Assembly (NCBI RefSeq): GCF_003334315.1
Contig: NZ_QOWR01000024.1
Reading direction: 5' to 3' (one strand)
Length of the DNA: 64,000 nt
Source: Escherichia coli
GTDB lineage: Bacteria; Pseudomonadota; Gammaproteobacteria; Enterobacterales; Enterobacteriaceae
Shown here: positions 111 through 27,868 of the stretch, piece by piece
How positions within the stretch are numbered: position 1 is the stretch's first letter
Layout: each line of letters begins with the position of its first letter
Program-made: the position numbers and the translations under genes
The notes under the pieces: model-generated
The model's input: the letters and a program-made list of their open reading frames with translations, nothing else
The model's database searches: none
What the model was told of the DNA's origin: nothing

Positions 111-643
111 GTATTGTAAAAGAGGAGCACAAAGCCACGCTGCGCAAATGGCACGAGGAATTGCAGGAGAAACGTGGCGAACGTGCCAGTCTGCGGCGTA
201 GTACGACGGTTAATGATGTTTGTCTGACGGATGGATTTCGCCTGTTTCTGAAGAACAGACAAATAAAGTGGCAGGATGAACCTGAGTGGCGTATCACCGC
301 ACTGGCGCTGATAGCCGCAGTTAGCGCCAATGTTAAAGCTATTGATGAACGGCAGCCTTTTGCCGCGCAGCTGGCGGCGGTAATGTCAAAGGGGCGTTTT
401 ACTCGTCTGTCGGCAGTAAAAACACCGGATGAATTACTGCGCCAGTTACGCCGCGCAGTCAGATTATTAAACGGTTCCGTCAATCTTGACTCTCTGGCAG
501 AGGGGGTCTTCCGTTGGTGCCAGGAGAGCGACGACCTGCTCAATCATCACCGCCGCCAGCAGCGGCCAACCGAATTTATCCGTATCCGCTGGGCGCTGGA
601 ATATTACCAGGCTGGCGACGCCGATAACGAACAAAATCAATAA
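107..643 (+). CDS. casB: CasB/Cse2 (Cascade small subunit), 178 aa
   Basis: ORF immediately upstream of cas7e/cas5e/cas6e/cas1/cas2; size typical of Cse2; synteny-based call. Confidence 0.75.
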   Translation: MSIVKEEHKATLRKWHEELQEKRGERASLRRSTTVNDVCLTDGFRLFLKNRQIKWQDEPEWRITALALIAAVSANVKAIDERQPFAAQLAAVMSKGRFTRLSAVKTPDELLRQLRRAVRLLNGSVNLDSLAEGVFRWCQESDDLLNHHRRQQRPTEFIRIRWALEYYQAGDADNEQNQ

Positions 644-654
644 AGGACTATCTC

Positions 655-1710
655 ATGACAACATTTATTCAGCTTCATTTGTTAACCGCTTACCCTGCTG
701 CCAACCTTAACCGTGATGATACCGGTGCGCCAAAAACTGTGGTGCTGGGTGGAGCAACGCGTCTGCGCGTTTCCTCGCAAAGTCTGAAATGTGCGTGGCG
801 CACTTCTGCACTTTTTGAACAGGCACTGGCGGGCCATATTGGTATTCGCAGTGGGCGTATTGCGCGTGAGGCGGCAACTATCCTGATTGAGAAAGGAATC
901 GAAGAGAAAAAAGCCATCGAATGGGCGGCAAAAATTGCAGATTATCTTGGGAAAGCTAAAAACGACAAAAAACCAAAAGATCCGCTCACTAACGCCGAAA
1001 CTGAACAGTTAGTCCATATCAGCCCGGCAGAATTTGACGCCGTAAAAGTGCTGGCCCATCAGCTTGCAGAAGAAAAGCGCGCGCCAAAAGAGGAAGATCT
1101 CGCGTTGTTACGCAAAGACCGTATGGCGGTAGATATTGCCATGTTTGGTCGTATGCTGGCGAATAAACCCGAGTTTAATGTTGAAGCCGCCTGCCAGGTA
1201 GCGCACGCATTTGGTGTCAGTGAAATGATTGTCGAAGATGATTTTTTCACCGCCGTTGATGATTTGCGCCAGGCTTCTGAAGATGCCGGTGCCGGGCATC
1301 TTGGTGAAACCGGATTCGGTTCTGCACTGTTCTACACCTATATCTGCATTGATAAAGATCTGCTGGTCGAAAACCTTGGCGGTGACGAAGCGTTAGCTAA
1401 TCAGACCATACGTGCCTTTACGGAAGCCGCACTTAAAGTCTCCCCAACCGGCAAACAGAACAGCTTTGCCAGCCGTGCCTACGCCTCCTGGGCGCTGGCA
1501 GAAAAAGGCACCGATCAACCGCGTTCTCTGGCGGCAGCTTTCTATGAACCCATTAATGGCACCCGTCAGTTAGAGGTGGCGGTGCAGCGTATTACAACTC
1601 TTCGCGAAAATATGAATACGGTCTACGAACAGAAGACCGATTACGCAAGTTTTGACGTGATGAACAAACAGGGAAGCATGAAGGACGTGCTGGACTTTAT
1701 CTGCGCGTAA
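655..1710 (+). CDS. casC: CasC/Cas7e (Cascade backbone subunit), 351 aa
   Basis: N-terminus MTTFIQLHLLTAYPAANLNRDD typical of Cas7e; operon position. Confidence 0.85.
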   Translation: MTTFIQLHLLTAYPAANLNRDDTGAPKTVVLGGATRLRVSSQSLKCAWRTSALFEQALAGHIGIRSGRIAREAATILIEKGIEEKKAIEWAAKIADYLGKAKNDKKPKDPLTNAETEQLVHISPAEFDAVKVLAHQLAEEKRAPKEEDLALLRKDRMAVDIAMFGRMLANKPEFNVEAACQVAHAFGVSEMIVEDDFFTAVDDLRQASEDAGAGHLGETGFGSALFYTYICIDKDLLVENLGGDEALANQTIRAFTEAALKVSPTGKQNSFASRAYASWALAEKGTDQPRSLAAAFYEPINGTRQLEVAVQRITTLRENMNTVYEQKTDYASFDVMNKQGSMKDVLDFICA

Positions 1711-4404: not shown

Positions 4405-4921
4405 GTGTTCCCCGCGCCAGCGGGGATAAACCGGAGCGTAGAGATTCTCGAAACCGATCCGGACGGTGTTCCCCGCGCCAGCGGGGATAAACCGAATAAA
4501 TAATAATCCAGTAGCCCCATGTATTAGTGTTCCCCGCGCCAGCGGGTATAAACCGGTAATAAAAAATATTCTATTTCTGCTGAATCAGTGTTCCCCGCGC
4601 CAGCGGGGATAAACCGCTTGCGAGCAAAAGATCCAGGCCGAGAAAGACGTGTTCCCCGCGCCAGCGGGGATAAACCGCGATAACCGCGTCAGTATTGGAC
4701 AGGATATCAGTGTTCCCCGCGCCAGCGGGGATAAACCGAATCTATTGTGAATTTGAAATGGTCCAGCACTGTGTTCCCCGCGCCAGCGGGGATAAACCGG
4801 GTAAAAACACGGTCTGAACCGACATTCATGTGTGTTCCCCGCGTCAGCGGGGATAAACCGGGCGCACTGGATGCGATGATGGATATCACTTGGAGTTCCC
4901 CGCCCCTGCGGTAGAACTCCC
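4405..4921 (+). CRISPR. Type I-E CRISPR array, 9 repeats (29 bp) and 8 spacers (32 bp each)
   Basis: Repeat GTGTTCCCCGCGCCAGCGGGGATAAACCG starting at 4405, 4466, 4527, 4588, 4649, 4710, 4771, 4832, plus degenerate terminal copy GAGTTCCCCGCCCCTGCGGTAGAACTCCC at 4893; period 61 bp; single-base variants in repeat 3 (GGGTATAAA) and repeat 8 (GCGTCAG). Confidence 0.97.
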
Positions 4922-11259: not shown

Positions 11260-12285
11260 TTGAGTTTGATAATCTCACTTACCTCCACGGTAAACCGCAA
11301 GGCACCGGGCTGCTGAAAGCCAATCCGGAAGACTTTGTGGTGGTGGAAGATTTGGGCTTTGAGCCTGATGGTGAAGGTGAGCATATTCTGGTTAGAATCC
11401 TCAAAAACGGCTGCAATACCCGTTTTGTGGCGGATGCACTGGCGAAATTCCTGAAAATTCATGCCCGTGAAGTCAGCTTCGCTGGGCAAAAAGACAAACA
11501 TGCTGTTACGGAACAGTGGTTATGCGCTCGCGTGCCGGGCAAGGAAATGCCCGATCTGAGCGCCTTTCAACTGGAAGGCTGCCAGGTGCTGGAGTATGCG
11601 CGGCACAAGCGCAAGCTGCGTTTAGGCGCGCTGAAAGGTAACGCCTTTACCCTGGTTCTGCGCGAAGTGAGCAATCGCGATGACGTTGAACAACGTCTGA
11701 TCGATATTTGCGTAAAAGGTGTACCGAACTACTTCGGTGCCCAACGTTTTGGGATTGGCGGTAGCAACTTGCAGGGGGCGCAGCGCTGGGCGCAAACCAA
11801 TACTCCGGTGCGCGATCGCAATAAACGGAGTTTTTGGTTGTCGGCAGCCCGCAGTGCGTTGTTTAATCAGATTGTTGCTGAGCGCCTCAAAAAAGCAGAC
11901 GTTAATCAAGTTGTTGACGGCGATGCGCTACAATTAGCCGGACGTGGTAGCTGGTTTGTAGCAACCACCGAAGAACTGGCGGAATTACAGCGTCGCGTCA
12001 ACGATAAAGAGTTGATGATAACCGCCGCATTGCCAGGCAGTGGCGAATGGGGAACTCAGCGTGAAGCGCTGGCATTCGAACAAGCAGCTGTCGCCGCAGA
12101 AACTGAATTACAAGCTTTACTGGTGCGCGAAAAAGTTGAAGCCGCGCGCAGAGCGATGCTGCTGTATCCGCAACAATTAAGCTGGAATTGGTGGGATGAC
12201 GTCACCGTAGAGATCCGTTTCTGGCTTCCGGCGGGTAGTTTTGCAACCAGCGTTGTCAGGGAACTTATCAACACAACAGGTGATT

Positions 12286-12305
<20 letters not shown>
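11256..12305 (+). CDS. truD: tRNA pseudouridine(13) synthase, 349 aa
   Basis: Length and sequence match TruD; operon position. Confidence 0.92.
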
Positions 12306-13667
<1,362 letters not shown>

Positions 13668-13805
13668 AACGTGAGGAAATACCTGGATTTTTCCTGGTTA
13701 TTTTGCCGCAGGTCAGCGTATCGTGAACATCTTTTCCAGTGTTCAGTAGGGTGCCTTGCACGGTAATTATGTCACTGGTTATTAACCAATTTTCCTGGGG
13801 GATAA

Positions 13806-14945
13806 ATGAGCGCGGGAAGCCCAAAATTCACCGTTCGCCGCATTGCGGCTTTGTCACTGGTTTCGCTATGGCTGGCAGGCTGTTCTGACACTTCAAATCC
13901 ACCGGCACCGGTCAGCTCCGTTAATGGCAATGCGCCTGCAAATACCAATTCTGGTATGTTGATTACGCCGCCGCCGAAAATGGGGACGACGTCTACAGCC
14001 CAGCAACCGCAAATTCAGCCGGTACAGCAGCCACAAATTCAGGCTACTCAACAACCGCAAATCCAGCCAGTGCAGCCAGTAGCTCAGCAGCCGGTACAGA
14101 TGGAAAACGGACGCATCGTCTATAACCGTCAGTATGGGAACATTCCGAAAGGCAGTTATAGCGGCAGTACCTATACCGTGAAAAAAGGCGACACACTTTT
14201 CTATATCGCCTGGATTACTGGTAACGATTTCCGTGACCTTGCTCAGCGCAACAATATTCAGGCACCATACGCGCTGAACGTTGGTCAGACCTTGCAGGTG
14301 GGTAATGCTTCCGGTACGCCAATCACTGGCGGAAATGCCATTACCCAGGCCGACGCAGCAGAGCAAGGAGTTGTGATCAAGCCTGCACAAAATTCCACCG
14401 TTGCTGTTGCGTCGCAACCGACAATTACGTATTCTGAATCTTCGGGTGAACAGAGTGCTAACAAAATGTTGCCGAACAACAAGCCAGCTGCGACCACGGT
14501 CACAGCGCCTGTAACGGTACCAACAGCAAGCACAACCGAGCCAACTGTCAGCAGTACATCAACCAGTACGCCTATCTCCACCTGGCGCTGGCCGACTGAG
14601 GGCAAAGTGATCGAAACCTTTGGCGCTTCTGAGGGGGGCAACAAGGGGATTGATATCGCAGGCAGCAAAGGACAGGCAATTATCGCGACCGCAGATGGCC
14701 GCGTTGTTTATGCTGGTAACGCGCTGCGCGGCTACGGTAATCTGATTATCATCAAACATAATGATGATTACCTGAGTGCCTACGCCCATAACGACACAAT
14801 GCTGGTCCGGGAACAACAAGAAGTGAAGGCGGGGCAAAAAATAGCAACCATGGGTAGCACCGGAACCAGTTCAACACGCTTGCATTTTGAAATTCGTTAC
14901 AAGGGGAAATCCGTAAACCCGCTGCGTTATTTGCCGCAGCGATAA
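13806..14945 (+). CDS. nlpD: Murein hydrolase activator lipoprotein NlpD (LysM + M23 domains), 379 aa
   Basis: Lipobox LAGC, Q/P-rich repeats, C-terminal M23 peptidase-like domain; rpoS promoter is known to lie inside this gene. Confidence 0.92.
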
Positions 14946-15007
14946 ATCGGCGGAACCAGGCTTTTGCTTGAATGTTCCGTCAAGGGATCACGGGTAGGAG
15001 CCACCTT

Positions 15008-15646
15008 ATGAGTCAGAATACGCTGAAAGTTCATGATTTAAATGAAGATGCGGAATTTGATGAGAACGGAGTTGAGGTTTTTGACGAAAAGGCCTTAGTA
15101 GAAGAGGAACCCAGTGATAACGATTTGGCCGAAGAGGAACTGTTATCGCAGGGAGCCACACAGCGTGTGTTGGACGCGACTCAGCTTTACCTTGGTGAGA
15201 TTGGTTATTCACCACTGTTAACGGCCGAAGAAGAAGTTTATTTTGCGCGTCGCGCACTGCGTGGAGATGTCGCCTCTCGCCGCCGGATGATCGAGAGTAA
15301 CTTGCGTCTGGTGGTAAAAATTGCCCGCCGTTATGGCAATCGTGGTCTGGCGTTGCTGGACATCCTGGCCGATGAAAAAGAGAACGGTCCGGAAGATACC
15401 ACGCAAGATGACGATATGAAGCAGAGCATCGTCAAATGGCTGTTCGAGCTGAACGCCAAACAGCGTGAAGTGCTGGCACGTCGATTCGGTTTGCTGGGGT
15501 ACGAAGCGGCAACACTGGAAGATGTAGGTCGTGAAATTGGCCTCACCCGTGAACGTGTTCGCCAGATTCAGGTTGAAGGCCTGCGCCGTTTGCGCGAAAT
15601 CCTGCAAACGCAGGGGCTGAATATCGAAGCGCTGTTCCGCGAGTAA
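15008..15646 (+). CDS. rpoS: RNA polymerase sigma S (RpoS) allele with in-frame internal deletion; 212 aa instead of 330 aa, predicted non-functional
   Basis: N-terminal 118 aa ([21 protein letters not shown]...[11 protein letters not shown]) and C-terminal 94 aa ([14 protein letters not shown]...[10 protein letters not shown]) match RpoS; regions 2.2-3 (e.g. YATWWIRQ) absent. Confidence 0.9.
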
Positions 15647-15661
15647 GTAAGCATCTGTCAG

Positions 15662-15694
15662 AAAGGCCAGTCTCAAGCGAGGCTGGCCTTTTCT
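15662..15694 (+). terminator. rpoS rho-independent terminator
   Basis: 12-bp stem AAGGCCAGTCTC / GAGGCTGGCCTT (one G-U), 4-nt loop, followed by TTTCT, 16 bp after rpoS stop. Confidence 0.65.
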
Positions 15695-15703
15695 GTGCAC
15701 AAT

Positions 15704-15735
15704 AAAAGGTCCGATGCCCATCGGACCTTTTTATT
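15704..15735. terminator. Bidirectional hairpin terminator between convergent rpoS and ygbN
   Basis: Stem AGGTCCGAT / ATCGGACCT with T-run on + strand and A-run upstream (T-run on - strand). Confidence 0.5.
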
Positions 15736-15739
15736 AAGG

Positions 15740-17104
15740 TCAAATTACCGCCCATACGCACCAGGTAATTAAGAATCCGGTAAAACCGAGAATGGTCGTT
15801 AACACTGTCCAGGTTTTCAGACCGTCTGCTACCGACAACCCCAGATATTTGGTCACAATCCAGAACCCTGAGTCATTAATATGTGACGCACCAAGCCCAC
15901 CAAAGCAGGCTGCCAGCGTCACCAATACGCACTGAATCGGATTCAATCCCATCACCGCTTCTGAGAGTAACCCGCCGGTTGTCAGTATTGCTACGGTTGC
16001 TGACCCCTGCGATGCACGCAGCGCCAGTGAAATAATAAATGCGGCTGGTAACAGAGGCAGGTCAATCATTTGTAGCATGTTGGCAAGGGCTTTGCCGACG
16101 CCCGATTCCACCAGCACTTTGCCAAATACCCCTCCAGCACCAGTAACCAAAATCACTACCGCCGCAGTGGGAAGGGCTGAGCCCATAATGTCGCTGGTGT
16201 GTTGTAAGCTCCAGCCGCGACGTAAAGCCAATAACCAGAATGCCAGCACCAGCGCAATCATTAGAGCTACCATTGGTGAGCCGATCAGCTGTAGCGTACC
16301 AAGCAGGGGATGCGAAGGCGGCATCAGTGTTGCGGAAACCGTACCCGCCATGATAATCGCGATAGGAATAACAATTAGCGAGGTGACCAGCGCGACGCCC
16401 GGTGGATTTATTTTATCGCTTAATTTTGTCGCGCCTTCCTCACTGGCCGGAGCCAGTTGCATCTGTTCCAGTACTTCCACCGACATCGCATATTGGTGCT
16501 TATTGATTATTTTCGCTGCAAAGTAGCCAACAATCCCTACGGGAATAGAAATCGCAATACCGATGATGGTTAGCCAGCCGATGTCTGCGTGGAGTAACCC
16601 CGCTGCGGCGACAGGGCCTGGATGCGGCGGTACCGCCACATGTACAGTTAGCATGATCCCAGCGACAGGCAGGCCAAATTTGAGTGGCGATATTTTGGCA
16701 ACCTTGGCAAAACCGTAAATGATTGGCGCAAGAATAATAAAGCCGACATCAAAGAAGACGGGAATACCGAGGAAGAACGCTGCCAGAGTCAGCGCAGCGA
16801 TAGTTCGTTTGTCACCTAACTTGCGACTGAAATAATTAGCCAGTGACTCTGCACCACCAGAGTGTTCGATCATACGCCCCAGCATAGCGCCCAGACCAAT
16901 AATAATAGTGACGGAACCAAGCACACCGCCCATCCCGGCGATCATCACTTTACCCACTTCGCCCGCCGGTATACCCGCCGCAAGTGCGACTAACAGGCTG
17001 ACGAGGAGCAGAGCAACGAATGGTTGTACCTTTGCCTTGATGACCAGCAGCAACAGCATGATTACGCCAGCTAACGCAATGCATAACAATGTAATTGTGG
17101 ACAT
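15740..17104 (-). CDS. ygbN: GntP-family transporter, 454 aa
   Basis: Highly hydrophobic, GntP-like N-terminus; K-12 position adjacent to rpoS. Confidence 0.85.
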   Translation of the reverse strand: MSTITLLCIALAGVIMLLLLVIKAKVQPFVALLLVSLLVALAAGIPAGEVGKVMIAGMGGVLGSVTIIIGLGAMLGRMIEHSGGAESLANYFSRKLGDKRTIAALTLAAFFLGIPVFFDVGFIILAPIIYGFAKVAKISPLKFGLPVAGIMLTVHVAVPPHPGPVAAAGLLHADIGWLTIIGIAISIPVGIVGYFAAKIINKHQYAMSVEVLEQMQLAPASEEGATKLSDKINPPGVALVTSLIVIPIAIIMAGTVSATLMPPSHPLLGTLQLIGSPMVALMIALVLAFWLLALRRGWSLQHTSDIMGSALPTAAVVILVTGAGGVFGKVLVESGVGKALANMLQMIDLPLLPAAFIISLALRASQGSATVAILTTGGLLSEAVMGLNPIQCVLVTLAACFGGLGASHINDSGFWIVTKYLGLSVADGLKTWTVLTTILGFTGFLITWCVWAVI

Positions 17105-17192
17105 GGGAAACCCTGTCTGAAAGTTATAGTTAACCTACCCCATCCGTAGATGGGGGGATGTATGGGTACGTTGTAATTAGGGATTTAACGAA

Positions 17193-17969
17193 TTAGCGCC
17201 AGGCGTCAAACCAGCCAAGCCCTTCTTCGGTGAGGCCACGAGGTTTATATTCACAACCGATCCAGCCCTGATATCCCACCTCATCGAACAGGCGGAACAG
17301 CCACGGATAGTTGATTTCTCCATCGTCCGGTTCATGTCGATCAGGTAGTCCGGCAATTTGTACGTGCGCATATTTCCCGGCGTAGTCGCGGATTAAATGC
17401 GTCAGGTTGCCATCTACTTTTTGCGCATGAAAAGTATCTAGTTGAATAAACACGTTATCTCGCGCAACCTCTTCAACAATAGCCAGTGCCTGATACTGGC
17501 TGGAGAAGAGATAATGAGGCTTAACGTCGGGGCTGAGTGCTTCAACTAATATTCGCTTGCCGTGTAGCGCAAAGCGGTCGGCAGCGTAGCGGAGATTATC
17601 GATAAATACTGCCCGGTACCGTTCAGCGTCTTCGCCAGCGGGCACGACGCCTGCCATCACATGGACTTGTTCACAATTGAGCGCCAATGCATATTCCAGT
17701 GCCAGGTCGATGTCTGCGTGTGCTTCGTGCTCACGTCCGGGAAGGGCGGATAATCCCCATTCCCCCGCATTAATATCTCCGGGAGCGGTATTGAACAGCG
17801 CCAGTGTCAGATGGTTTTGCTCCAGTTGCTTTTGGATTTGCAGGGTGGAGTAGTCATAGGGAAACAGAAATTCCACAGCATCGAACCCGGCTTTTCGCGC
17901 TGCGGCGAAGCGTTCAATAAAAGGCACTTCGGTGAACATCATGGATAAATTAGCTGCAAAACGAGGCAT
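17193..17969 (-). CDS. ygbM: Hydroxypyruvate-isomerase-like protein (2-oxo-tetronate isomerase), 258 aa
   Basis: TIM-barrel xylose-isomerase-like sequence; synteny. Confidence 0.85.
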
Positions 17970-17973
17970 TGCA

Positions 17974-18612
17974 TTAACTCCTTAATTCCGCAATTTCACC
18001 TGCGGTCAGATAACGGATCGGGCGGTCACCGAGAATAAAAATCAGCTTTGCCGTTTCCTCCAGCTCTTCCATATTGTTGGCGGCTTCTTGCAGGCTTTCA
18101 CCGCAAACCACTGGGCCATGATTTGCCAGTAAAAAAGCCTGATTGTCTGCTGCCAGTTCCGCCAGATCCTGTGCGATGCGTTTATCGCCCGGTCGGTAAT
18201 AAGGCACCAGCGGGACATTTCCCATCCGCATCACCACGTATGGTGTGAACGGACGAATAACGTTGCTGCTGTCCAGCCCTTGCAGGCAGGAAAGCGCCGT
18301 CGACCATGTGCTGTGCAAATGCACCACCGCTTTACAACGCGGATTGTTGCGATACAGCGCCAGATGAAAGAGCACCTCTTTCGAGGGTTTGTCACCACTT
18401 AACCATTCGCCATCCGCGGCGACTTTGGAAAGCCGCTGCGGATCGAGATTGCCCAGGCATGAACCTGTCGGTGTCGCCAGTAAATTCCCGTCAGGTAAAA
18501 GCAGCGACAGATTGCCAGCCGAACCGGTTGCATAGCCGCGCTGAAAGAATGAACTGGCAATCCGCGTCATCTCCTCTCGCAAAGACTGCTCTACTTTTGC
18601 GAAATCGCTCAT
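17974..18612 (-). CDS. ygbL: Class II aldolase/adducin-family protein (3-oxo-tetronate 4-phosphate decarboxylase), 212 aa
   Basis: Class II aldolase-like sequence; synteny. Confidence 0.85.
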
Positions 18613-19871
18613 GATAAAAACTCTCTTTGGGCTCGTGAAAAAAAGGCGTCATCACCGAAGTTGCCAGATTTAAGGGCGAGTGAGACAGGCTTATCCAGTG
18701 CGTTTACCCACGGCACGCCGGGGGAAATGGTTGGGCCAATATGAAACCCTTTTATGCCCAGGCTCTGTGTGACTACGCCGGAGGTCTCACCGCCTGCGAC
18801 AATAAAGCGTGCCACGCCTTCCGCCGCTAACCGCGCCGCTAGTTGAGAAAACAGTGTTTCTACTGCCTGACTGGCTTTTTGTGCACCGTATTGCTGTTGA
18901 ATTGCTGCCAATGCGTCAGTGCTGGCGGTGGCAAAAACCAGTGGAGCAAGTACACTTTCCTGGCCCAGAACCCACTCTGCCAGTTCGTGTGCATAAGTGG
19001 CCAGAGTTTCAGTTGAGAGGCAGCGTGCCACATCAACTTCACGGGCTGGTGCAATTTGACGGTAATGTGCTACCTGGCGGTTGGTCATTTGAGAGCATGA
19101 ACCGGAGAGCACTACGCCGCGCCCAGCGAGCGGATGCCCTGCTTCGCGAGCCTGGTTACCGTTTTCTTGCGTCCACTGCCGGGCCAGGCCAATCGCCAGA
19201 CCAGAACCGCCCGTTACCAGTGGGGCATCGCGCAAGGCTTCTCCCTGAATTTCCAGATGGTGTTCGGTCAGCGCATCAAGCACCGCGTAGCGGTAGCCCT
19301 CTTGCTGTAAGCGAGCCAGCTCTTGACGAACGGCATCCACACCTTGTTCGAAAACATGTGCCGAAACGACGCCGCAGCGCCCTGTGGATTGCGCTTCAAC
19401 CAGACGGGGAAGATAGCTGTCGGTCATGGGATTTACCGGGTGATGGCGCATCCCGGATTCGGCCAGCAGTTGATTCATTACGAACAAATACCCCTGATAA
19501 ACCGTACGTCCGTTGACCGGCAGGGCCGGAGAGAAGACCGTAAACGGCGTGTCGAGAGCATCCATTAATGCATCGGTAACCGGGCCGATATTACCTTTAG
19601 CCGTACTGTCGAAAGTAGAGCAGTATTTGAAATAGATCTGTTTGCAACCTTGCTGTTGCAACCAGCTCAGAGCCGCCAGCGATTGCTGTGTGGCTTCAAC
19701 CACCGGACAGGAACGCGTTTTCAGGCTGATCACCAGTGCGTCGATTGCTTCCGGCATTTTACCTGTTGGAACACCGTTAATTTGTACCGTTGGTAGACCG
19801 TTTTCCACCAGAAAACTGGCGATATCCGTTGCGCCGGTAAAATCATCGGCGATAACGCCAATCTTGATCAT
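18609..19871 (-). CDS. ygbK: Four-carbon acid sugar kinase family protein (3-oxo-tetronate kinase), 420 aa as longest ORF
   Basis: N-terminus MIKIGVIADDFTGATD typical of this kinase family; 4-bp overlaps with ygbJ and ygbL. Confidence 0.8.
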   Translation of the reverse strand: MIKIGVIADDFTGATDIASFLVENGLPTVQINGVPTGKMPEAIDALVISLKTRSCPVVEATQQSLAALSWLQQQGCKQIYFKYCSTFDSTAKGNIGPVTDALMDALDTPFTVFSPALPVNGRTVYQGYLFVMNQLLAESGMRHHPVNPMTDSYLPRLVEAQSTGRCGVVSAHVFEQGVDAVRQELARLQQEGYRYAVLDALTEHHLEIQGEALRDAPLVTGGSGLAIGLARQWTQENGNQAREAGHPLAGRGVVLSGSCSQMTNRQVAHYRQIAPAREVDVARCLSTETLATYAHELAEWVLGQESVLAPLVFATASTDALAAIQQQYGAQKASQAVETLFSQLAARLAAEGVARFIVAGGETSGVVTQSLGIKGFHIGPTISPGVPWVNALDKPVSLALKSGNFGDDAFFSRAQREFLS

Positions 19872-20776
19872 GATTTCGCTCCCGGTAGAGTGATGCCAGA
19901 GAAAATCTTGATAACTGCGCTATCGTCTTCTTTCCCGTAACCCGCGTTACTGGCGCTGGTGAACATATTCAATGCTGTTGAGGCCAATGGCAGCGGGAAG
20001 TGCAGGGCTTTGGCTGTATCGGCAACCAGGCCAAGATCCTTAACAAAAATATCGACGGCTGAATGCGGGGTGTAATCGCCATCCACCACATGACGCATCC
20101 GGTTTTCGAACATCCAGGAATTTCCGGCGGCATTGGTCACGACGTCATACATCACATCCAGCGGGATCCCCGCACGGGCTGCAAGTGCCATCGCTTCGGC
20201 TCCGGCAGCAATATGTACGCCCGCTAACAACTGGTGAATAATTTTTACGGTCGAACCTAGTCCCGGTTCTGCACCTATGCGATAAACTTTTCCGGCAACG
20301 GCTTCCAGCACGGGTGCCAGTCGTTCAAAGGCAATATCGCTACCGGAGGCCATGACAGTCATTTCACCGTTAGCGGCTTTTACTGCACCACCAGAAACTG
20401 GCGCATCCAGCATTTCCAGATCGAATCCAGCCAGAGCGGTAGCAATTTCTTGCGCATCAGCACTAGCGATAGTGGAAGAAACCATTACTGCCGTACCGGG
20501 TTTCAGATGTTGTGCAACGCCTGTTTCACCAAACAGCACCTGTTTAACCTGGGCCGCATTGACCACCAGCACCAGCAGAGCGTCCAGTTTTTCGGCAAAC
20601 GTCGCGGCGTTATCAGAAACCCCGCAAGCACCTGCCTCTTTCAACGTAGCGCAGGCATTGCTGTTCAGGTCTGCGCCCCAGGTAGAAAGACCTGCGCGGA
20701 CACATGACAGTGCTGCTCCCATTCCCATTGACCCTAAGCCAACGATACCGACATGAAACTCAGATCCCGTTTTCAT
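19868..20776 (-). CDS. ygbJ: NAD-dependent 3-hydroxyisobutyrate-dehydrogenase-like enzyme (L-threonate dehydrogenase), 302 aa
   Basis: Rossmann motif GIVGLGSMGMGAA; synteny. Confidence 0.85.
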   Translation of the reverse strand: MKTGSEFHVGIVGLGSMGMGAALSCVRAGLSTWGADLNSNACATLKEAGACGVSDNAATFAEKLDALLVLVVNAAQVKQVLFGETGVAQHLKPGTAVMVSSTIASADAQEIATALAGFDLEMLDAPVSGGAVKAANGEMTVMASGSDIAFERLAPVLEAVAGKVYRIGAEPGLGSTVKIIHQLLAGVHIAAGAEAMALAARAGIPLDVMYDVVTNAAGNSWMFENRMRHVVDGDYTPHSAVDIFVKDLGLVADTAKALHFPLPLASTALNMFTSASNAGYGKEDDSAVIKIFSGITLPGAKS

Positions 20777-20971
20777 CTGCTCTCCTTGTTAATTTAAGTG
20801 ATATTTTGTTTGATATTGTGAATATAAGCGCTGGAAGATAACGATATGGTGAGCTGATTCACATAAATTAACATTGTGTGTTATTTTATGTGAACTAAGC
20901 GTTAGTTGCGCCGCGCACGTTTCGCAGGCAAATAGCGTAGAATGTCAGCAGGACAAAGGAAGGAGCAAAAG

Positions 20972-21739
20972 TTGATACCCGTAGAGCGTCGCCAAATCAT
21001 CCTTGAGATGGTAGCTGAAAAAGGCATTGTCAGTATTGCTGAACTAACGGACAGAATGAATGTGTCACATATGACCATTCGTCGGGATTTACAAAAACTG
21101 GAGCAGCAGGGAGCCGTTGTGCTGGTGTCCGGAGGCGTCCAGTCTCCGGGACGCGTGGCGCATGAACCTTCTCATCAGGTAAAAACTGCGCTGGCAATGA
21201 CGCAAAAAGCGGCTATTGGCAAGCTGGCGGCAAATCTTGTTCAGCCGGGAAGTTGTATCTATCTGGATGCGGGAACGACCACGTTAGCGATAGCACAGCA
21301 TCTGATTCACATGGAGTCACTGACTGTGGTCACAAACGATTTCGTTATTGCAGACTACTTGCTCGACAACAGTAATTGCACAATTATTCACACTGGCGGT
21401 GCAGTGTGTCGGGAAAACCGTTCCTGTGTCGGGGAAGCCGCTGCGACCATGCTGCGCAGCCTGATGATTGATCAGGCTTTTATTTCTGCATCGTCATGGA
21501 GTGTGCGGGGGATTTCTACGCCAGCGGAAGATAAAGTCACGGTGAAACGGGCGATTGCCAGTGCCAGCCGCCAGCGAGTTTTGGTCTGTGATGCGACGAA
21601 ATATGGTCAGGTGGCGACATGGCTGGCGTTACCATTAAGCGAGTTTGATCAGATTATCACAGACGACGGTTTGCCGGAGAGTGCCAGTCGCGCGCTGGCG
21701 AAGCAGGATCTCTCTTTGCTGGTAGCGAAAAATGAATAA
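20972..21739 (+). CDS. ygbI: DeoR-family transcriptional regulator, 255 aa (TTG start)
   Basis: HTH MNVSHMTIRRDLQKLE; TTG at 20972 (MIPVERRQ...) preceded by AAGGAAGGAG; alternative ATG at 20942. Confidence 0.8.
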   Translation: MIPVERRQIILEMVAEKGIVSIAELTDRMNVSHMTIRRDLQKLEQQGAVVLVSGGVQSPGRVAHEPSHQVKTALAMTQKAAIGKLAANLVQPGSCIYLDAGTTTLAIAQHLIHMESLTVVTNDFVIADYLLDNSNCTIIHTGGAVCRENRSCVGEAAATMLRSLMIDQAFISASSWSVRGISTPAEDKVTVKRAIASASRQRVLVCDATKYGQVATWLALPLSEFDQIITDDGLPESASRALAKQDLSLLVAKNE

Positions 21740-21789
21740 TGGCCTGCAATAACATTTGGTTACTCATGCTTCACAGAAGAAGCATGAGA

Positions 21790-22446
21790 CTACTTTATTT
21801 TATAAAATGACAGCCGCCCGCTTTTCGGCGTGCCGGTATCAATATAAATCTGGTTAGCGAACGTCTGAATGTTATCAAACATCATATGTCCAAATATAAA
21901 ATAATCAGCGCCGTTTATTTGTTGTAACTCGCCATTAAGCGATTTCTGCACACGATCAACAGGCCAGAGTAATTCGCTTTCTGCTATTTCTTTACCAAAC
22001 TGATATTCATCACCCGGATAATCTGCATGTGCGATGGCATATTTTATGTTGTCATTAATGATTTCAATAATATGTGGAAGGTGATGGAATTTCAGCAACA
22101 GATCTATTGCCTCTTGTTGCTCTGAATCATTTAAATCGAAAAACCAGTCACCACCGCTGGCAAGCCACATATTTCCATCGCCAGTTTCGAATGCATCCAA
22201 CGCCATCGCTTCGTGGTTGCCTTTAACCGACGTAAACCAGGGTTGGTTTAGCAGGCGCAGCACGTTAAGACTCTTCGGCCCACGATCAATATTATCGCCG
22301 ACAGAAATAAGTAAGTCGATTTCGGGGAAAAAAGAGAGTTGATGTAAGCGGGATTGTAATAACTGATATTCACCATGAATATCACCAACGACCCATATAT
22401 GGCGATAGTGATGGGCATTGATTTTTTGATAGCGTGTAGATGGCAT
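21790..22446 (-). CDS. pphB: Serine/threonine protein phosphatase 2, 218 aa
   Basis: Metallophosphatase motifs GDIHG, GDNIDRG, GNHE; matches PphB. Confidence 0.9.
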   Translation of the reverse strand: MPSTRYQKINAHHYRHIWVVGDIHGEYQLLQSRLHQLSFFPEIDLLISVGDNIDRGPKSLNVLRLLNQPWFTSVKGNHEAMALDAFETGDGNMWLASGGDWFFDLNDSEQQEAIDLLLKFHHLPHIIEIINDNIKYAIAHADYPGDEYQFGKEIAESELLWPVDRVQKSLNGELQQINGADYFIFGHMMFDNIQTFANQIYIDTGTPKSGRLSFYKIK

Positions 22447-22551
22447 GGTTTTACCCTGTAAAATAAGCTTTCCTATTATACAGGGTGTTTTTATTTTATT
22501 CGTCAGTTGTCGTTAATATTCCCGATAGCAAAAGACTATCGGGAATTGTTA

Positions 22552-25113
22552 TTACACCAGGCTCTTCAAGCGATAAATCCACTCCAGCGCCTGACGCGGG
22601 GTGAGTGAATCCGGATCAAGATTTTCCAGAGCTTCGACCGCAGGCGAAGTTTCTTCTGGTACTGACAGCAAAGACATTTGCGTACCATCCACTTGCGTAG
22701 CGGCGGCGTTCGGCGAAATGCTTTCCAGCTCACGCAGCTTTTGCCGTGCGCGCTTAATAACCTCTTTTGGCACGCCTGCCAGAGCTGCAACCGCCAGGCC
22801 GTAGCTTTTGCTCGCCGCGCCATCCTGCACGCTGTGCATAAAGGCAATGGTGTCGCCGTGCTCCAGTGCATCGAGATGCACGTTAGCGACGCCTTCCATT
22901 TTCTCCGGTAACTGGGTCAGCTCGAAATAGTGGGTAGCAAACAGCGTCAATGCCTTAATCTTATTCGCCAGATTTTCTGCGCACGCCCACGCCAGCGACA
23001 GACCATCGTAAGTGGACGTTCCACGCCCGATCTCATCCATCAATACCAGACTGTACTCGGTGGCGTTATGTAAAATATTGGCGGTTTCGGTCATCTCCAC
23101 CATAAAGGTTGAGCGCCCGGACGCCAGGTCATCTGCCGCGCCTACGCGGGTAAAGATGCGATCGATAGGTCCAATCTCGACTTTTTGTGCCGGTACATAG
23201 CTGCCGATGTAGGCCATCAGCGCAATCAGTGCGGTCTGGCGCATATAGGTACTTTTACCGCCCATGTTCGGACCGGTGATGATCAACATGCGGCGCTGCG
23301 GCGACAGATTCAGCGGGTTGGCGATAAATGGCTCATTCAGTACTTGTTCAACTACCGGATGGCGACCTTCGGTAATGCGAATGCCCGGTTTATCAATGAA
23401 GGTCGGGCAGGTGTAGTTCAGGGTATAGGCGCGTTCCGCCAGGTTCACCAGCACGTCGAGTTCCGCCAGCGCGCTCGCGCTCTGTTGCAACGCTTCCAGA
23501 TGCGGCAACAGCAGGTCGAACAACTCTTCATAAAGCTGTTTTTCCAGTGCCAGTGCTTTGCCTTTTGAGGTGAGAACTTTATCTTCGTACTCTTTTAGCT
23601 CTGGAATGATGTAGCGCTCGGCGTTTTTCAGCGTCTGGCGACGCATGTAGTTGATGGGTGCCAGATGGCTTTGCCCACGGCTGATTTGAATGTAGTAGCC
23701 GTGCACCGCATTAAAGCCAACTTTCAGCGTGTCCAGGCCGGTACGTTCACGCTCGCGGACTTCCAGACGCTCCAGATAATCGGTCGCGCCGTCAGCCAGC
23801 GCGCGCCACTCATCCAGCTCTTCGTTATAGCCCGATGCGATAACACCACCGTCGCGTACCAGCACCGGCGGTGTGTCGATGATTGCTCGCTCCAGCAGAT
23901 CGCGCAGCTCGGCAAACTCGCCCATCTTCTCACGTAGCGCCTGTACCGGTGCACTATCGACAGTTTCTAACTGCGCACGCAGCTCCGGCAGTTGCTGGAA
24001 AGCGTGGCGCATACGGGCCAGATCGCGTGGGCGAGCAGTTCGTAAAGCCAGACGTGCCAGAATACGTTCCAGGTCGCCGACCTGACGCAGTACCGGCTGT
24101 AGCCCGGCGGTGAAATCCTGCAATGCGCCAATAGTTTGCTGGCGCTCAAGCAACACGCGGGTATCGCGCACTGGCATATGCAGCCAGCGTTTCAGCATAC
24201 GGCTGCCCATCGGCGTGACGGTGCAGTCGAGCACAGAAGCCAGCGTATTTTCCGCACCACCCGCCAGGTTCTGGGTGATTTCCAGATTACGACGCGTCGC
24301 GGCATCCATAATGATGCTGTCCTGCTCACGTTCCATGGTGATGGAACGAATATGCGGCAGAGTCGTACGTTGGGTATCTTTCGCATACTGCAACAGACAA
24401 CCGGCAGCACAAAGTCCGCGCGGCGCGTTCTCGACGCCAAAACCGACCAGATCGCGGGTCCCAAATTGCAGATTCAACTGCTGGCGCGCGGTGTCGATTT
24501 CAAACTCCCACAGCGGGCGACGGCGCAGGCCGCGACGGCCTTCAATTAACGACATTTCAGCAAAATCTTCTGCATACAGCAGTTCCGCAGGATTAGTGCG
24601 TTGCAGTTCTGCCGCCATCGTTTCGCGGTCAGCCGGTTCGCTCAGGCGAAAACGCCCGGAACTGATATCCAGCGTCGCGTAGCCGAAACCTTTGCTGTCC
24701 TGCCAGATAGCCGCCAGCAGGTTGTCCTGACGCTCCTGCAACAGGGCTTCATCGCTGATGGTGCCTGGCGTAACGATACGCACAACTTTGCGCTCAACCG
24801 GACCTTTGCTGGTCGCCGGATCGCCAATTTGTTCGCAGATGGCAACGGACTCTCCCTGATTCACCAGTTTGGCGAGATAGTTTTCCACCGCATGGTAGGG
24901 AATCCCCGCCATCGGGATCGGCTCTCCCGCCGAAGCACCGCGTTTGGTCAGTGAAATATCCAGCAGTTGCGACGCGCGTTTTGCGTCGTCATAAAACAGT
25001 TCATAAAAATCACCCATCCGGTAAAACAGCAGGATCTCGGGATGCTGGGCTTTCAGCCTGAGATACTGCTGCATCATGGGCGTATGGGCGTCGAAATTTT
25101 CTATTGCACTCAT
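22552..25113 (-). CDS. mutS: DNA mismatch repair protein MutS, 853 aa
   Basis: [40 protein letters not shown]...; Walker [10 protein letters not shown]; full length. Confidence 0.97.
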
Positions 25114-25359
25114 GGGGTTATGTCCGGTTCCCTGATATTAAATGGGGTGTGATGGTTTTTATTTTCGTTGTAATCACATAAGGCGCACATGATACCGGAG
25201 TTAATCATTTCAGGGGAAGAAGCGAACGGCGAGTTCTTGATGCTGGTTCCGGGAAAGATGCTGTTTTGCAGCTTTTGCGTGATGCTTATGAAGCAAGTAC
25301 GCAAAATTGTATCGGTTGGCGAACCCTTCTTCTTTGGAGTCATAGTGCCCTTTAAGATT

Positions 25360-25382
25360 AAGATGTAATATAAATACATCTT
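25360..25382. promoter_or_regulatory. NsrR-type operator (11-1-11 inverted repeat) upstream of ygbA
   Basis: AAGATGTAATATAAATACATCTT, inverted repeat AAGATG...CATCTT 18 bp upstream of the ygbA start; ygbA is a known NsrR-regulon gene. Confidence 0.5.
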
Positions 25383-25399
25383 AATGAGGTGGAGGCAGC

Positions 25400-25753
25400 A
25401 TGTCCGGCAAGCGTATCTCTCGTGAAAAACTGACGATTAAAAAAATGATCGATCTTTATCAAGCGAAATGCCCGCAGGCGTCAGCGGAGCCGGAGCATTA
25501 CGAGGCGTTGTTTGTTTACGCGCAAAAGCGGCTGGATAAATGTGTGTTCGGCGAAGAGAAACCAGCCTGTAAGCAGTGTCCGGTGCACTGTTACCAGCCT
25601 GCAAAGCGTGAAGAGATGAAACAGATTATGCGTTGGGCCGGGCCGAGAATGCTGTGGCGTCATCCGATCTTAACCGTGCGTCATCTCATCGATGACAAGC
25701 GTCCGGTGCCAGAACTGCCGGAAAAATATCGTCCGAAAAAACCTCATGAATAG
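25400..25753 (+). CDS. ygbA: Nitrosative-stress-induced protein YgbA, 117 aa
   Basis: Cys-rich 117-aa ORF in K-12 position between mutS and fhlA. Confidence 0.85.
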   Translation: MSGKRISREKLTIKKMIDLYQAKCPQASAEPEHYEALFVYAQKRLDKCVFGEEKPACKQCPVHCYQPAKREEMKQIMRWAGPRMLWRHPILTVRHLIDDKRPVPELPEKYRPKKPHE

Positions 25754-25789
25754 TATGCCGGACAGGCAGATCTGTCCGGCAATTTGCAG

Positions 25790-27868
25790 TTAAATCAATG
25801 CCGATTTATCAATTCCCAGCCGCTTCATCCGTGACAGCAGGGTCGTGCGTTTCAGCCCCAGACGTTGCGCAGCGCCTTTAGGCCCGGCAACCACGCCGTT
25901 GGTTTCTTTCAGCACGCGCACAATCAACTGATATTCATCTTCGCCCTCCAGGGCGACAACCGTTGCGGCAGGCGGCGTTTCAGGTTCCGGTAAAACAATA
26001 TCTGGCAATGACAGCTGCAGCACGTTACCGCGTGTTAGCAATACCGCGCGCTCAATGACGTTTTCCAGTTCGCGTACGTTACCCGGCCACTCCATGTTGC
26101 TCAAGGTGCGCAGCGTCTCGGCAGGAATGCTGTCGATATTGCGCCCCAGACGACGGGCAATTTTGAAGGTAAAGGCTTTCGCCAGCAGCGGAATATCTTC
26201 CGGACGCTCGCGTAGTGGCGGCAGGTGAATCGGGAATACGTTCAGGCGGTAATAGAGATCGCTACGGAACTCACGGTCGGCGACCATTTTTTTCAGATCG
26301 CGGTTAGTCGCGGCGATTAGACGCACGTCCGTCTGAATGATTTTGTTGCTGCCGAGACGTTCAAACTCCTGTTCCTGCAATACACGCAGCAACTTCGGCT
26401 GTAACTCCAGTGGCATATCGCCCACTTCGTCGAGGAACAGGGAGCTTTTATCCGCCAGTTCAAAACGACCGATACGCTGGGCGCTGGCACCGGTAAAAGC
26501 CCCACGCTCATGACCAAACAGATCGCTTTCCAGCAATCCGGCAGGCATCGCCGCGCAGTTCATTTTGACCATGCGGCGATTATTACGCCCACTGAGATTA
26601 TGGATCGCACGGGCAATCAGCTCTTTACCCGTGCCAGTTTCACCGAGGATCAGCACGGTACTGTCACTTTGCGCCACCATTTCAACTTGTTTAAGCACGC
26701 TGTACATGGCTTCGCTGCGGCCAATAATCTCGCCAAATTCACTATCAACATTGTTGAGCTGCTCGGTCAGGGCGAGGTTTTCATCAACCAGCCGTTCTTT
26801 CAGACGATGGATTTCCTGATAGGCGAGGGCGTTATCGACAGCGATTGCCACACGTTCGGCAATCTGGCGCAGTAAATTCAGATTGGTAGTGGTAAACACT
26901 TTCTCTTCGCATTGCGCCAGTTTCAGCACGCCCAGCATGGTGTCGCCAGACATCAGCGGTAACAGGCACAAGGTTTGAATCTGGTTGCCCCAGGTGTCGA
27001 ACAACATGCGTTCATAGGGGGCTAAATCGTCCCGCTCGTGGAGATTGATCAGCAGCATCTCTTTACTTTTGAACACGCGTTCGGTGAGGGTTCCGGCTTC
27101 ATCGACTTCGCTCTGTTCGTGGGCGGGATGCTGTTTATCAAGATAGTGAGTGGAGTAGATGTTGAGTTTGTTTTTACGGTGGCTGCGTAAGACGATACTG
27201 ATATCGTCAATGTCGAAATAGTAATGGATTTCTTTGGCGACTTCGCTGACCAGTTCGTCCATATCCAGGCGGGAAAGCACCGCGTTGGTGATGGCGACCA
27301 GGATGCGGAAGTTATCGCGTTCCCGGCATAACAACTCATAGTCGACATTGTTAACGACGCGGCTCTGGATTTGTTCGGTGACGACAGAAACGATCTGCGT
27401 AAATGTTTGCAGACGATTGAACTCTTTTTCGCTCCAGGGGCGATCGTCATAACGAATAAATTCACAGCCACCAAAAATATGCCCTTCCGCCGCCAGTGGC
27501 ATCAGGCAATAGTGACCAAATTTTGGGTATAGCCCACCTGCGTCCAGCTGCGGCCAGGTTTCACAAAATTCTTCGTAACTGCAATGCAGCGTATCAGGGC
27601 GCGACAAAATGCTGCGTACCGGACCGTGTGCCAGAACAGTTTCGTCTTCATATTTAATGGGGGTGTCTTTTTCACGCGACGCGTAATAAGACGCACGTTG
27701 AGTCTGCGCTTGCCACAACACAATAGCCGCGTTGTCGGCGAGCGCAGAACGCTTTACCAGTTGCGAAAGAGCCTCACACAGCGAGGCCAGATCGGGCTGC
27801 TGCAATAGTGTCCGAGTGATGTCGAACAACCCTTGTTGTCCGAGATCACTCATCGGTGTATATGACAT
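25790..27868 (-). CDS. fhlA: Formate hydrogenlyase transcriptional activator (sigma54 enhancer-binding protein), 692 aa
   Basis: Start set at MSYTPMSDLGQQGLF; AAA+ motifs GETGTGKE and GAFTGA; C-terminal HTH. Confidence 0.95.
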   Translation of the reverse strand: MSYTPMSDLGQQGLFDITRTLLQQPDLASLCEALSQLVKRSALADNAAIVLWQAQTQRASYYASREKDTPIKYEDETVLAHGPVRSILSRPDTLHCSYEEFCETWPQLDAGGLYPKFGHYCLMPLAAEGHIFGGCEFIRYDDRPWSEKEFNRLQTFTQIVSVVTEQIQSRVVNNVDYELLCRERDNFRILVAITNAVLSRLDMDELVSEVAKEIHYYFDIDDISIVLRSHRKNKLNIYSTHYLDKQHPAHEQSEVDEAGTLTERVFKSKEMLLINLHERDDLAPYERMLFDTWGNQIQTLCLLPLMSGDTMLGVLKLAQCEEKVFTTTNLNLLRQIAERVAIAVDNALAYQEIHRLKERLVDENLALTEQLNNVDSEFGEIIGRSEAMYSVLKQVEMVAQSDSTVLILGETGTGKELIARAIHNLSGRNNRRMVKMNCAAMPAGLLESDLFGHERGAFTGASAQRIGRFELADKSSLFLDEVGDMPLELQPKLLRVLQEQEFERLGSNKIIQTDVRLIAATNRDLKKMVADREFRSDLYYRLNVFPIHLPPLRERPEDIPLLAKAFTFKIARRLGRNIDSIPAETLRTLSNMEWPGNVRELENVIERAVLLTRGNVLQLSLPDIVLPEPETPPAATVVALEGEDEYQLIVRVLKETNGVVAGPKGAAQRLGLKRTTLLSRMKRLGIDKSALI

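Follow-up and report, generated by a model that had tools for sequence, protein, structure and literature searches.

We analysed a stretch of 64,000 nucleotides of Escherichia coli DNA, hereafter the window, in which seven genes, from ygbN to pphB, occupy the interval between rpoS and mutS (Table 1). None of them contains an internal stop (0/7). A preliminary description of this DNA had given their content, order, orientation, functional labels and coordinates; all of these were confirmed with the ORF list, the RefSeq annotation and NCBIfam models, as was its statement that every frame is intact. Nothing besides the seven ygb/pphB genes lies ahead of mutS, according to the ORF list and to the RefSeq annotation of HS30-1, MG1655 and REL606, and the TPR gene present between pphB and mutS in MEI003 is absent from the window. 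At the other end, the spacer between rpoS and ygbN measures 93 bp (15647-15739), and its alignment to K-12, B and HS30-1 is collinear. An Rfam search of positions 13000 to 26000 found no RNA family.

Table 1. Genes, hairpins and other features of the rpoS-mutS interval and its flanks. Enzyme names are those of the predicted functions. Scores are bits against the NCBIfam model, with the cut-off in brackets.
Feature	Position	Strand	Model, score (cut-off)	Remarks
rpoS, left flank	15008-15646	+		212 aa, in-frame deletion
rpoS terminator hairpin	15659-15696	+		fold -27.8 kcal/mol, z -5.4
Hairpin and U-run right after the ygbN stop	15700-15736	-		fold -17.2 kcal/mol, z -3.6
ygbN (o454)	15740-17104	-	NF007332, 827 (524), residues 1-454	454 aa; GntP-family permease; intact ORF
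ygbM = otnI, 2-oxo-tetronate isomerase	17193-17969	-	NF043033 OxoTetrIsom, 395.4 (325)	258 aa; intact ORF
ygbL = otnC, class II aldolase-fold decarboxylase	17974-18612	-	NF043034, 334.8 (250)	212 aa; intact ORF
ygbK = otnK, 3-oxo-tetronate kinase	18609-19871	-	NF043035, 598.4 (350)	420 aa, full length; intact ORF
C5 run (coding strand) in otnK	18720-18724	-		K-12 has C4
ygbJ = ltnD, L-threonate 2-dehydrogenase	19868-20776	-	NF043037, 473.6 (350), residues 7-301	302 aa; intact ORF
Divergent ygbJ/ygbI control region	20777-20971			intergenic
ygbI, DeoR-family predicted repressor of ygbJKLMN	20972-21739	+	NF040890, 484.9 (400)	255 aa; longest ORF begins 20942
Hairpin between the convergent ygbI and pphB stops	21763-21788			terminator scan; fold z -3.9
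pphB (prpB), serine/threonine phosphoprotein phosphatase 2	21790-22446	-	NF007425, 467.1 (332), residues 1-218	218 aa; metallophosphoesterase family; intact ORF
mutS, right flank	22552-25113	-		853 aa; protein identical to K-12 MutS

All seven products (7/7) exceed the curated cut-off of their equivalog model over their full length. YgbJ also matches PDB 3g0o with an E value of 5e-149; the AP_endonuc_2 Pfam family is on record for the YgbM orthologue, and HTH_DeoR and DeoRC for a protein identical to the YgbI of the window. In OtnK, both DUF1537 domains are complete (SBD_N, 4-228, and NBD_C, 253-411), and the alignment to the full-length solved homologues PDB 3dqq and 1yzy reaches residues 418-419. 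The permease YgbN is presumed to be the acid-sugar importer.

The overlaps between ygbJ and ygbK and between ygbK and ygbL are of 4 bp each and translationally coupled, and ygbL and ygbM are spaced by 4 nt. We consider it very likely that ygbJKLMN (ltnD-otnK-otnC-otnI-ygbN) is a single catabolic unit with ygbI divergent from it, the best explanation of this arrangement including an L-threonate pathway and repression by YgbI. The last gene, pphB, stands outside the ygb operon: it is an unrelated, separately transcribed metallophosphatase gene, acting on phosphoproteins. It is AT-rich, with 41% GC. The interval is already known, and functions had previously been assigned to its genes by orthology.

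The ygbJ/ygbI control region and the hairpins

In the control region between ygbJ and ygbI, a 16-nt inverted repeat has its arms at 20858-20873 and 20879-20894, and a third half-site lies at 20787-20801; taken together, they make a candidate YgbI operator. A promoter-like site on the + strand (20858-20887) overlaps the palindrome. Consensus promoter and terminator scans gave hits no commoner than in shuffled sequences. The region is 99% conserved across six strains, i.e. too conserved to reveal covariation. In K-12, ChIP-exo detected one YgbI site between ygbI and ygbJ, and deletion of ygbI raises the expression of ygbJKLMN (PMC8464067). By analogy with these K-12 binding and knockout data, YgbI devoid of inducer would bind the palindrome, over the promoter of ygbJ, and keep the operon off.

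The YgbI of the window has an asparagine at position 88, versus a serine in K-12 and HS30-1, owing to a SNP at 21234. A private mutation of the repressor was considered and rejected: the public collection lists exactly this N88 protein in 102 blocks, and the residue is therefore a lineage variant.

Three hairpins, each folded individually, were found at gene ends. The rpoS terminator hairpin is kept in every interval type, the polymorphic break point being placed just after it, at 15693-15700; alignments to all other interval types end at 15692. The hairpin that follows the ygbN stop, which also exists in the ST130-type interval, is likely the ygbN terminator, and the one lying between the convergent stops of ygbI and pphB is probably a terminator shared by these two genes.

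A predicted L-threonate pathway

The E. coli enzymes are orthologous to a set reportedly characterised by Zhang et al. 2016 (PNAS 113:E4161), and the substrate and chemistry proposed here for ygbJKLM follow from this orthology. L-threonate, which is a breakdown product of ascorbate, would be imported by YgbN and oxidised by LtnD into 2-oxo-tetronate, which OtnI would isomerise into 3-oxo-tetronate. OtnK would then phosphorylate the C4 of 3-oxo-tetronate, and OtnC would decarboxylate the kinase product, yielding dihydroxyacetone phosphate (DHAP). Two later papers that refer to Zhang et al. (PMC12994016, PMC12540250) outline this four-step pathway and its enzyme names. All four of its enzyme families (4/4) are present in the window at the equivalog level, in one cluster with the genes of a transporter and of a repressor; the activities themselves are predicted from the genes. 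The cluster differs from the described system in that it comes without a D-erythronate dehydrogenase, no D-erythronate 2-dehydrogenase being found by model match among the seven genes of the interval. As the LtnD equivalog is present and this dehydrogenase is absent from the interval, gene content predicts the use of L-threonate rather than of D-erythronate (pathway according to PMC12994016).

Another small hydroxy-acid, e.g. a tartrate isomer, might be the physiological substrate in E. coli, if the threonate names had been over-propagated from other species. The phenotypes of ygbI loss in K-12 are indeed growth on L-tartrate, observed upon ygbI deletion (PMC8464067), and adaptation to m-tartrate, in which ygbI mutations appeared in both evolved lines (PMC6452873), not growth on threonate; moreover, the MG1655 record still labels the four pathway enzymes "putative". 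However, LtnD, OtnI, OtnK and OtnC are each far above the threonate-pathway equivalog cut-offs and below those of their paralogue models. Besides, the tartrate studies were done in K-12, where otnK is truncated, and their authors call the activities likely promiscuous. We regard a substrate other than threonate as improbable, and retain L-threonate as the predicted one. The tartrate and threonate readings can both hold.

Interval types and the rpoS deletion

Variation of the rpoS-mutS interval among E. coli lineages, already noted in the preliminary description, was recovered. The direct rpoS-ygbN junction of the window was present in 1950 of 5426 complete E. coli genomes (36%), as counted with a junction probe at 80% coverage or more, and in some arrangement or other the cluster is much more widespread, since 4575 of the 5426 (84%) carry at least 80% of positions 15000-23500 of the window. 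Three alternative intervals were seen: the first has a 2.9-kb insert with a MarR gene and a hydroxyarylic-acid decarboxylase BCD set, the second a 2.1-kb insert with flavodoxin and MBL-hydrolase genes, and the third has lost ygbN-ygbI. E. coli B REL606 has the same seven genes as the window, in identical order. In the o454-nlpD typing scheme of Ewers et al. 2014 (PMC4209514), which distinguishes patterns I to IV, the window matches pattern II, the type of K-12 and of ECOR group A, without insert between rpoS and ygbN. The other patterns were recovered as well: IV in ST130 and 3059, III in Nissle 1917, and I in the O157-type FORC_044.

Next to the interval, alignment to HS30-1 and K-12 shows that rpoS has suffered an in-frame deletion of 354 bp, so that its product has 212 aa instead of 330. 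The deletion lies between 12-bp direct repeats, GCGTTGCTGGAC, placed at nucleotides 343 and 697 of rpoS, with the junction in the repeat copy at 15350-15361. As a consequence, the diagnostic amplicon of Ewers et al. would be 354 bp shorter for the window, as was reported for ECOR6 (PMC4209514).

Could the pattern II junction and the rpoS deletion together be the signature of a single clone, e.g. that of ECOR6? This strain was reported to have both the MG1655 pattern and a 354-bp rpoS deletion (Ewers et al., PMC4209514), and a 40-mer across the deletion junction was found in only one of the 5426 complete genomes. However, this single carrier, strain 3059, has another interval type (IV), and the public collection lists the 212-aa product, in exactly this form, in 54 blocks. 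Among the places listed, it occurs in K-12-type, MarR/UbiD-type, O157-type and B2-type contexts, on differing rpoS SNP backgrounds. In addition, the 12-bp repeat at the break points is the longest direct repeat in rpoS, and the coordinates published for ECOR6 (298-651) do not match those of the window (343-696); no microhomology was found at 298/652 of rpoS. A clone-specific signature is thus very unlikely. The deletion is mediated by the repeats and has recurred in all four interval types; it therefore marks neither a clone nor a lineage.

The proposal that the interval and the rpoS lesion help to place the strain therefore holds in part: the lesion, found on all four interval types, does not mark a lineage, and the interval, with a junction shared by 36% of the genomes and a cluster present in 84%, allows no more than a coarse placement. 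As a typing marker the interval type has been published; it is a coarse one, of small importance beyond bookkeeping.

Comparison with HS30-1 and K-12

The closest relation was found with strains of commensal and animal origin such as the commensal HS30-1 (NZ_CP029492.1), which has an intact otnK of 420 aa and differs from the window by one mismatch in the 6905-bp interval (99.99% identity) and by 7 SNPs over 48.6 kb downstream. Unlike the window, HS30-1 has an intact rpoS and a serine at position 88 of YgbI; the run upstream of nlpD is T5 there and T4 in the window, and the CRISPR spacers differ as well.

In K-12 MG1655 (b2734-b2740; NC_000913.3, 2859760-2866465), the seven genes, their order, their orientation and the spacers are as in the window. 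The comparison with K-12 thus revealed the gene content expected from the preliminary description, and the term K-12-type that it used suits the architecture. It does not suit the sequence, which over 6.9 kb has 61 mismatches and 3 single-base gap positions relative to MG1655 (99.07% identity, versus 99.99% with HS30-1), nor does the window share the otnK frameshift of K-12. At the protein level, 9 amino acid differences were counted in PphB, 4 in YgbM, 2 in YgbN and 2 in YgbI, and YgbL is identical. That the window might come from K-12 or a laboratory derivative, the interval being simply reference sequence, would agree with the identical gene content and order and with the identical MutS and YgbL proteins, but it is refuted by these alignments and by the absence of the K-12-specific frameshift, to which are added the mere 7 SNPs separating the window from HS30-1 and its 100% identity over 6.6 kb to the draft assembly GCA_012773515.1, and its probability is practically nil.

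The difference in otnK stems from the loss, in K-12, of one base from the C5 run: beyond codon 384 the frame is altered, and the protein has 388 aa, versus 420 aa in the window. The window is thus more intact than the K-12 reference. Among the 5426 complete genomes, 3807 carry the intact allele and 371 the K-12 one, the named strains among the latter being K-12 derivatives. The base loss also creates, in the K-12 annotation, a false "intergenic" gap of 92 nt between ygbK and ygbL, and explains why the operon is annotated as split in K-12. It is conceivable, and we propose it tentatively, that wild-type E. coli, the strain of the window included, carries a single coupled ygbJKLMN operon whose full-length OtnK supports growth on L-threonate, and that K-12 is a natural mutant with a C-terminally truncated kinase. 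Statements based on K-12, i.e. separate ygbJK and ygbLM operons, a 92-nt gap, and a phenotype on tartrate but none on threonate, would then be artefacts of the laboratory lineage. The frameshift of K-12 otnK should in any case be borne in mind when this strain serves for the study of the pathway.

Gene content of the rpoS-mutS interval

The preliminary description placed a complete K-12-type gene set with all frames intact between rpoS and mutS, and its coordinates and gene list are correct: 15740-22446 is filled by seven intact frames, and the same genes in the same order, with none extra, are annotated in HS30-1, an E. coli commensal strain and the nearest RefSeq genome (NZ_CP029492.1), in K-12 MG1655 and in B REL606. 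Gene content is thus equal to that of K-12, and also of B.

Features of the interval and its surroundings (window positions; bits, NCBIfam score/curated cut-off)
Feature	Position	Strand	Bits	Remark
T-run	13786-13789			17 nt upstream of nlpD start codon
rpoS	15008-15646			carries a 354-bp in-frame deletion
rpoS deletion junction	15350-15361			12-bp repeat
ygbN	15740-17104	-	827/524	intact ORF
ygbM (otnI)	17193-17969	-	395/325	intact ORF
ygbL (otnC)	17974-18612	-	335/250	intact ORF
ygbK (otnK)	18609-19871	-	598/350	intact ORF
C5 run in ygbK	18720-18724
ygbJ (ltnD)	19868-20776	-	474/350	intact ORF
third half-site	20787-20801			candidate operator
16-nt inverted repeat	20858-20873, 20879-20894			candidate operator
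ygbI	20972-21739	+	485/400	intact ORF
pphB	21790-22446	-	467/332	intact ORF
pphB leader hairpin	22453-22486
mutS	22552-25113	-

Protein identity was assessed with NCBIfam equivalog models; all seven products matched end to end, each scoring above its curated cut-off. In OtnK, SBD_N (4-228) and NBD_C (253-411) are both complete and the alignment runs to the C-terminal end of two homologues of solved structure, 3dqq and 1yzy; LtnD matches 3g0o (E 5e-149). The RefSeq name of YgbM, given via model NF007441, is 'HPr family phosphocarrier protein'. This name looks like a misnomer, for YgbM belongs to the TIM-barrel AP_endonuc_2 proteins and scores above the cut-off of the 2-oxo-tetronate isomerase equivalog as well.

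As outlined in PMC12994016 and PMC12540250, citing Zhang et al. 2016, LtnD, OtnI, OtnK and OtnC are the enzymes of a four-step route from L-threonate through 2-oxo-tetronate, 3-oxo-tetronate and then 3-oxo-tetronate 4-phosphate to DHAP. Judging from their sequences, the ygbJKLM products would run this route here. D-erythronate dehydrogenase, the enzyme of its own that D-erythronate needs, is encoded by none of the interval's seven genes. The full-text literature on ygbJ/ygbK includes several papers on blaSHV plasmids and on Klebsiella pneumoniae.

Hairpins lie 3' of rpoS, of ygbN, of the convergent ygbI/pphB pair and of mutS. pphB, a separate gene, is rich in AT (41% GC versus about 51-55% in its neighbours) and the most divergent of the interval, with 9 amino acid changes from K-12 and only 85.5% nucleotide identity to the allele of strain MEI003. 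Its leader contains a strong hairpin that stops 7 nt short of the start codon and may limit pphB translation; folded whole, the pphB-mutS spacer has a z of -6.5. An Rfam scan of the interval region found no RNA family.

The K-12 otnK frameshift and the YgbI control region

K-12 ygbK lacks one base of the C5 run, which makes up one of the three gap positions in the alignment to K-12. The resulting C4 shifts the frame after codon 384, giving a protein of 388 aa that has lost the last part of NBD_C, versus 420 aa in the window. A 48-mer with the K-12 allele had matches in 371 of 5426 complete genomes, those listed being MG1655, W3110, DH1, DH10B, BW25113, C600, MC4100, AB1157 and similar strains, versus 3807 for the intact 49-mer. 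The window is therefore in the wild-type state, and the lesion is that of the reference strain and K-12-specific. In the window ygbK/ygbL overlap by 4 bp, as do ygbJ/ygbK; the 92-nt ygbK-ygbL gap of K-12 results from the frameshift, and in turn is the reason why RegulonDB lists ygbJK and ygbLM as two operons. PMC4168707 records, as an anomaly, a transcript across this gap.

In K-12, ChIP-exo mapped a single YgbI site to the ygbI-ygbJ intergenic region, where it overlaps the promoter of ygbJ, and ygbI deletion increased ygbJKLMN expression and permitted growth on L-tartrate (PMC8464067); ygbI was also mutated in the course of adaptation to m-tartrate (PMC6452873). Within the 195-bp ygbJ/ygbI control region lie an inverted repeat of 16 nt and a third half-site, together a candidate YgbI operator; this assignment is unproven because the control regions of six strains align at 99% identity. 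At 21234, YgbI has N88, versus S88 in K-12 and HS30-1, the only difference between window and HS30-1 across the whole interval. The exact N88 protein occurs in 102 indexed blocks of the public collection, all on contigs of at most 0.2 Mb, and is therefore a lineage variant, not a private mutation.

Interval types and recurrence of the rpoS deletion

At least 80% of 15000-23500 was present in 4575 of the 5426 complete E. coli genomes (84%); 3 of 5440 matching places were on plasmids. A 491-bp probe spanning the rpoS-ygbN junction was covered (at least 80%) in only 1950 genomes (36%) and several alternative arrangements were retrieved, which bears out the polymorphism ascribed to the interval. 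ST130 and strain 3059 carry a 2.9-kb insert (MarR and hydroxyarylic-acid decarboxylase BCD) and Nissle 1917 one of 2.1 kb (flavodoxin and MBL-hydrolase); O157-type FORC_044 has lost ygbN-ygbI and retains the decarboxylase segment and pphB; MEI003 shows a variant arrangement with a TPR gene. In the scheme of Ewers et al. 2014 (PMC4209514), the arrangements retrieved correspond to patterns IV, III and I, and the window to pattern II, the type of K-12 and ECOR group A. The rpoS terminator hairpin is retained in all types, divergence following immediately (15693-15700), and the ygbN terminator hairpin is common to K-12-type and ST130-type intervals.

A 354-bp in-frame deletion in rpoS lies between two 12-bp direct repeats, GCGTTGCTGGAC, whose copies at nt 343 and 697 form the longest direct repeat of the gene; the 212-aa product lacks regions 2.3 to 3.2. 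Among complete genomes the junction occurs only in strain 3059, whose interval is pattern IV. The exact product was found in 54 indexed blocks of the public collection, and the matches listed cover all four interval types (K-12-type, pattern IV, O157-type, B2-type) with differing SNP backgrounds. The deletion is therefore a recurrent hot-spot event and no lineage marker, contrary to the preliminary description, in which the rpoS lesion helped to place the strain. Overall, the initial reading of this ordinary interval holds, refined only by the K-12-specific otnK frameshift, the census figures and this recurrence.

Comparison with reference strains

Over 15647-22551, identity was 99.99% to HS30-1 (1 mismatch), 99.16% to B REL606 and 99.07% to K-12 MG1655 (61 mismatches, 3 single-base gap positions); over the shared part only, it was 99.26% to ST130 and 97.35% to Nissle 1917. 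A 68-kb draft contig (DABDHO010000020.1, GCA_012773515.1) is 100% identical to 12008-18646 (6639 bp), a stretch that takes in both the deletion in rpoS and the T4 run, and is probably the source of the window or a clone-mate. This run upstream of nlpD, also four T in that contig, has five in K-12 and HS30-1.

HS30-1 is collinear with the window, with 7 SNPs across 48.6 kb; their CRISPR spacers differ, the type I-E array adjoining cas2e (about 4466-4900) having a spacer content unlike that of the otherwise near-identical HS30-1. According to Ewers et al. (PMC4209514), ECOR6 shows the pattern of MG1655 and an rpoS deletion of 354 bp, the same size as in the window, but the coordinates published for it are different.
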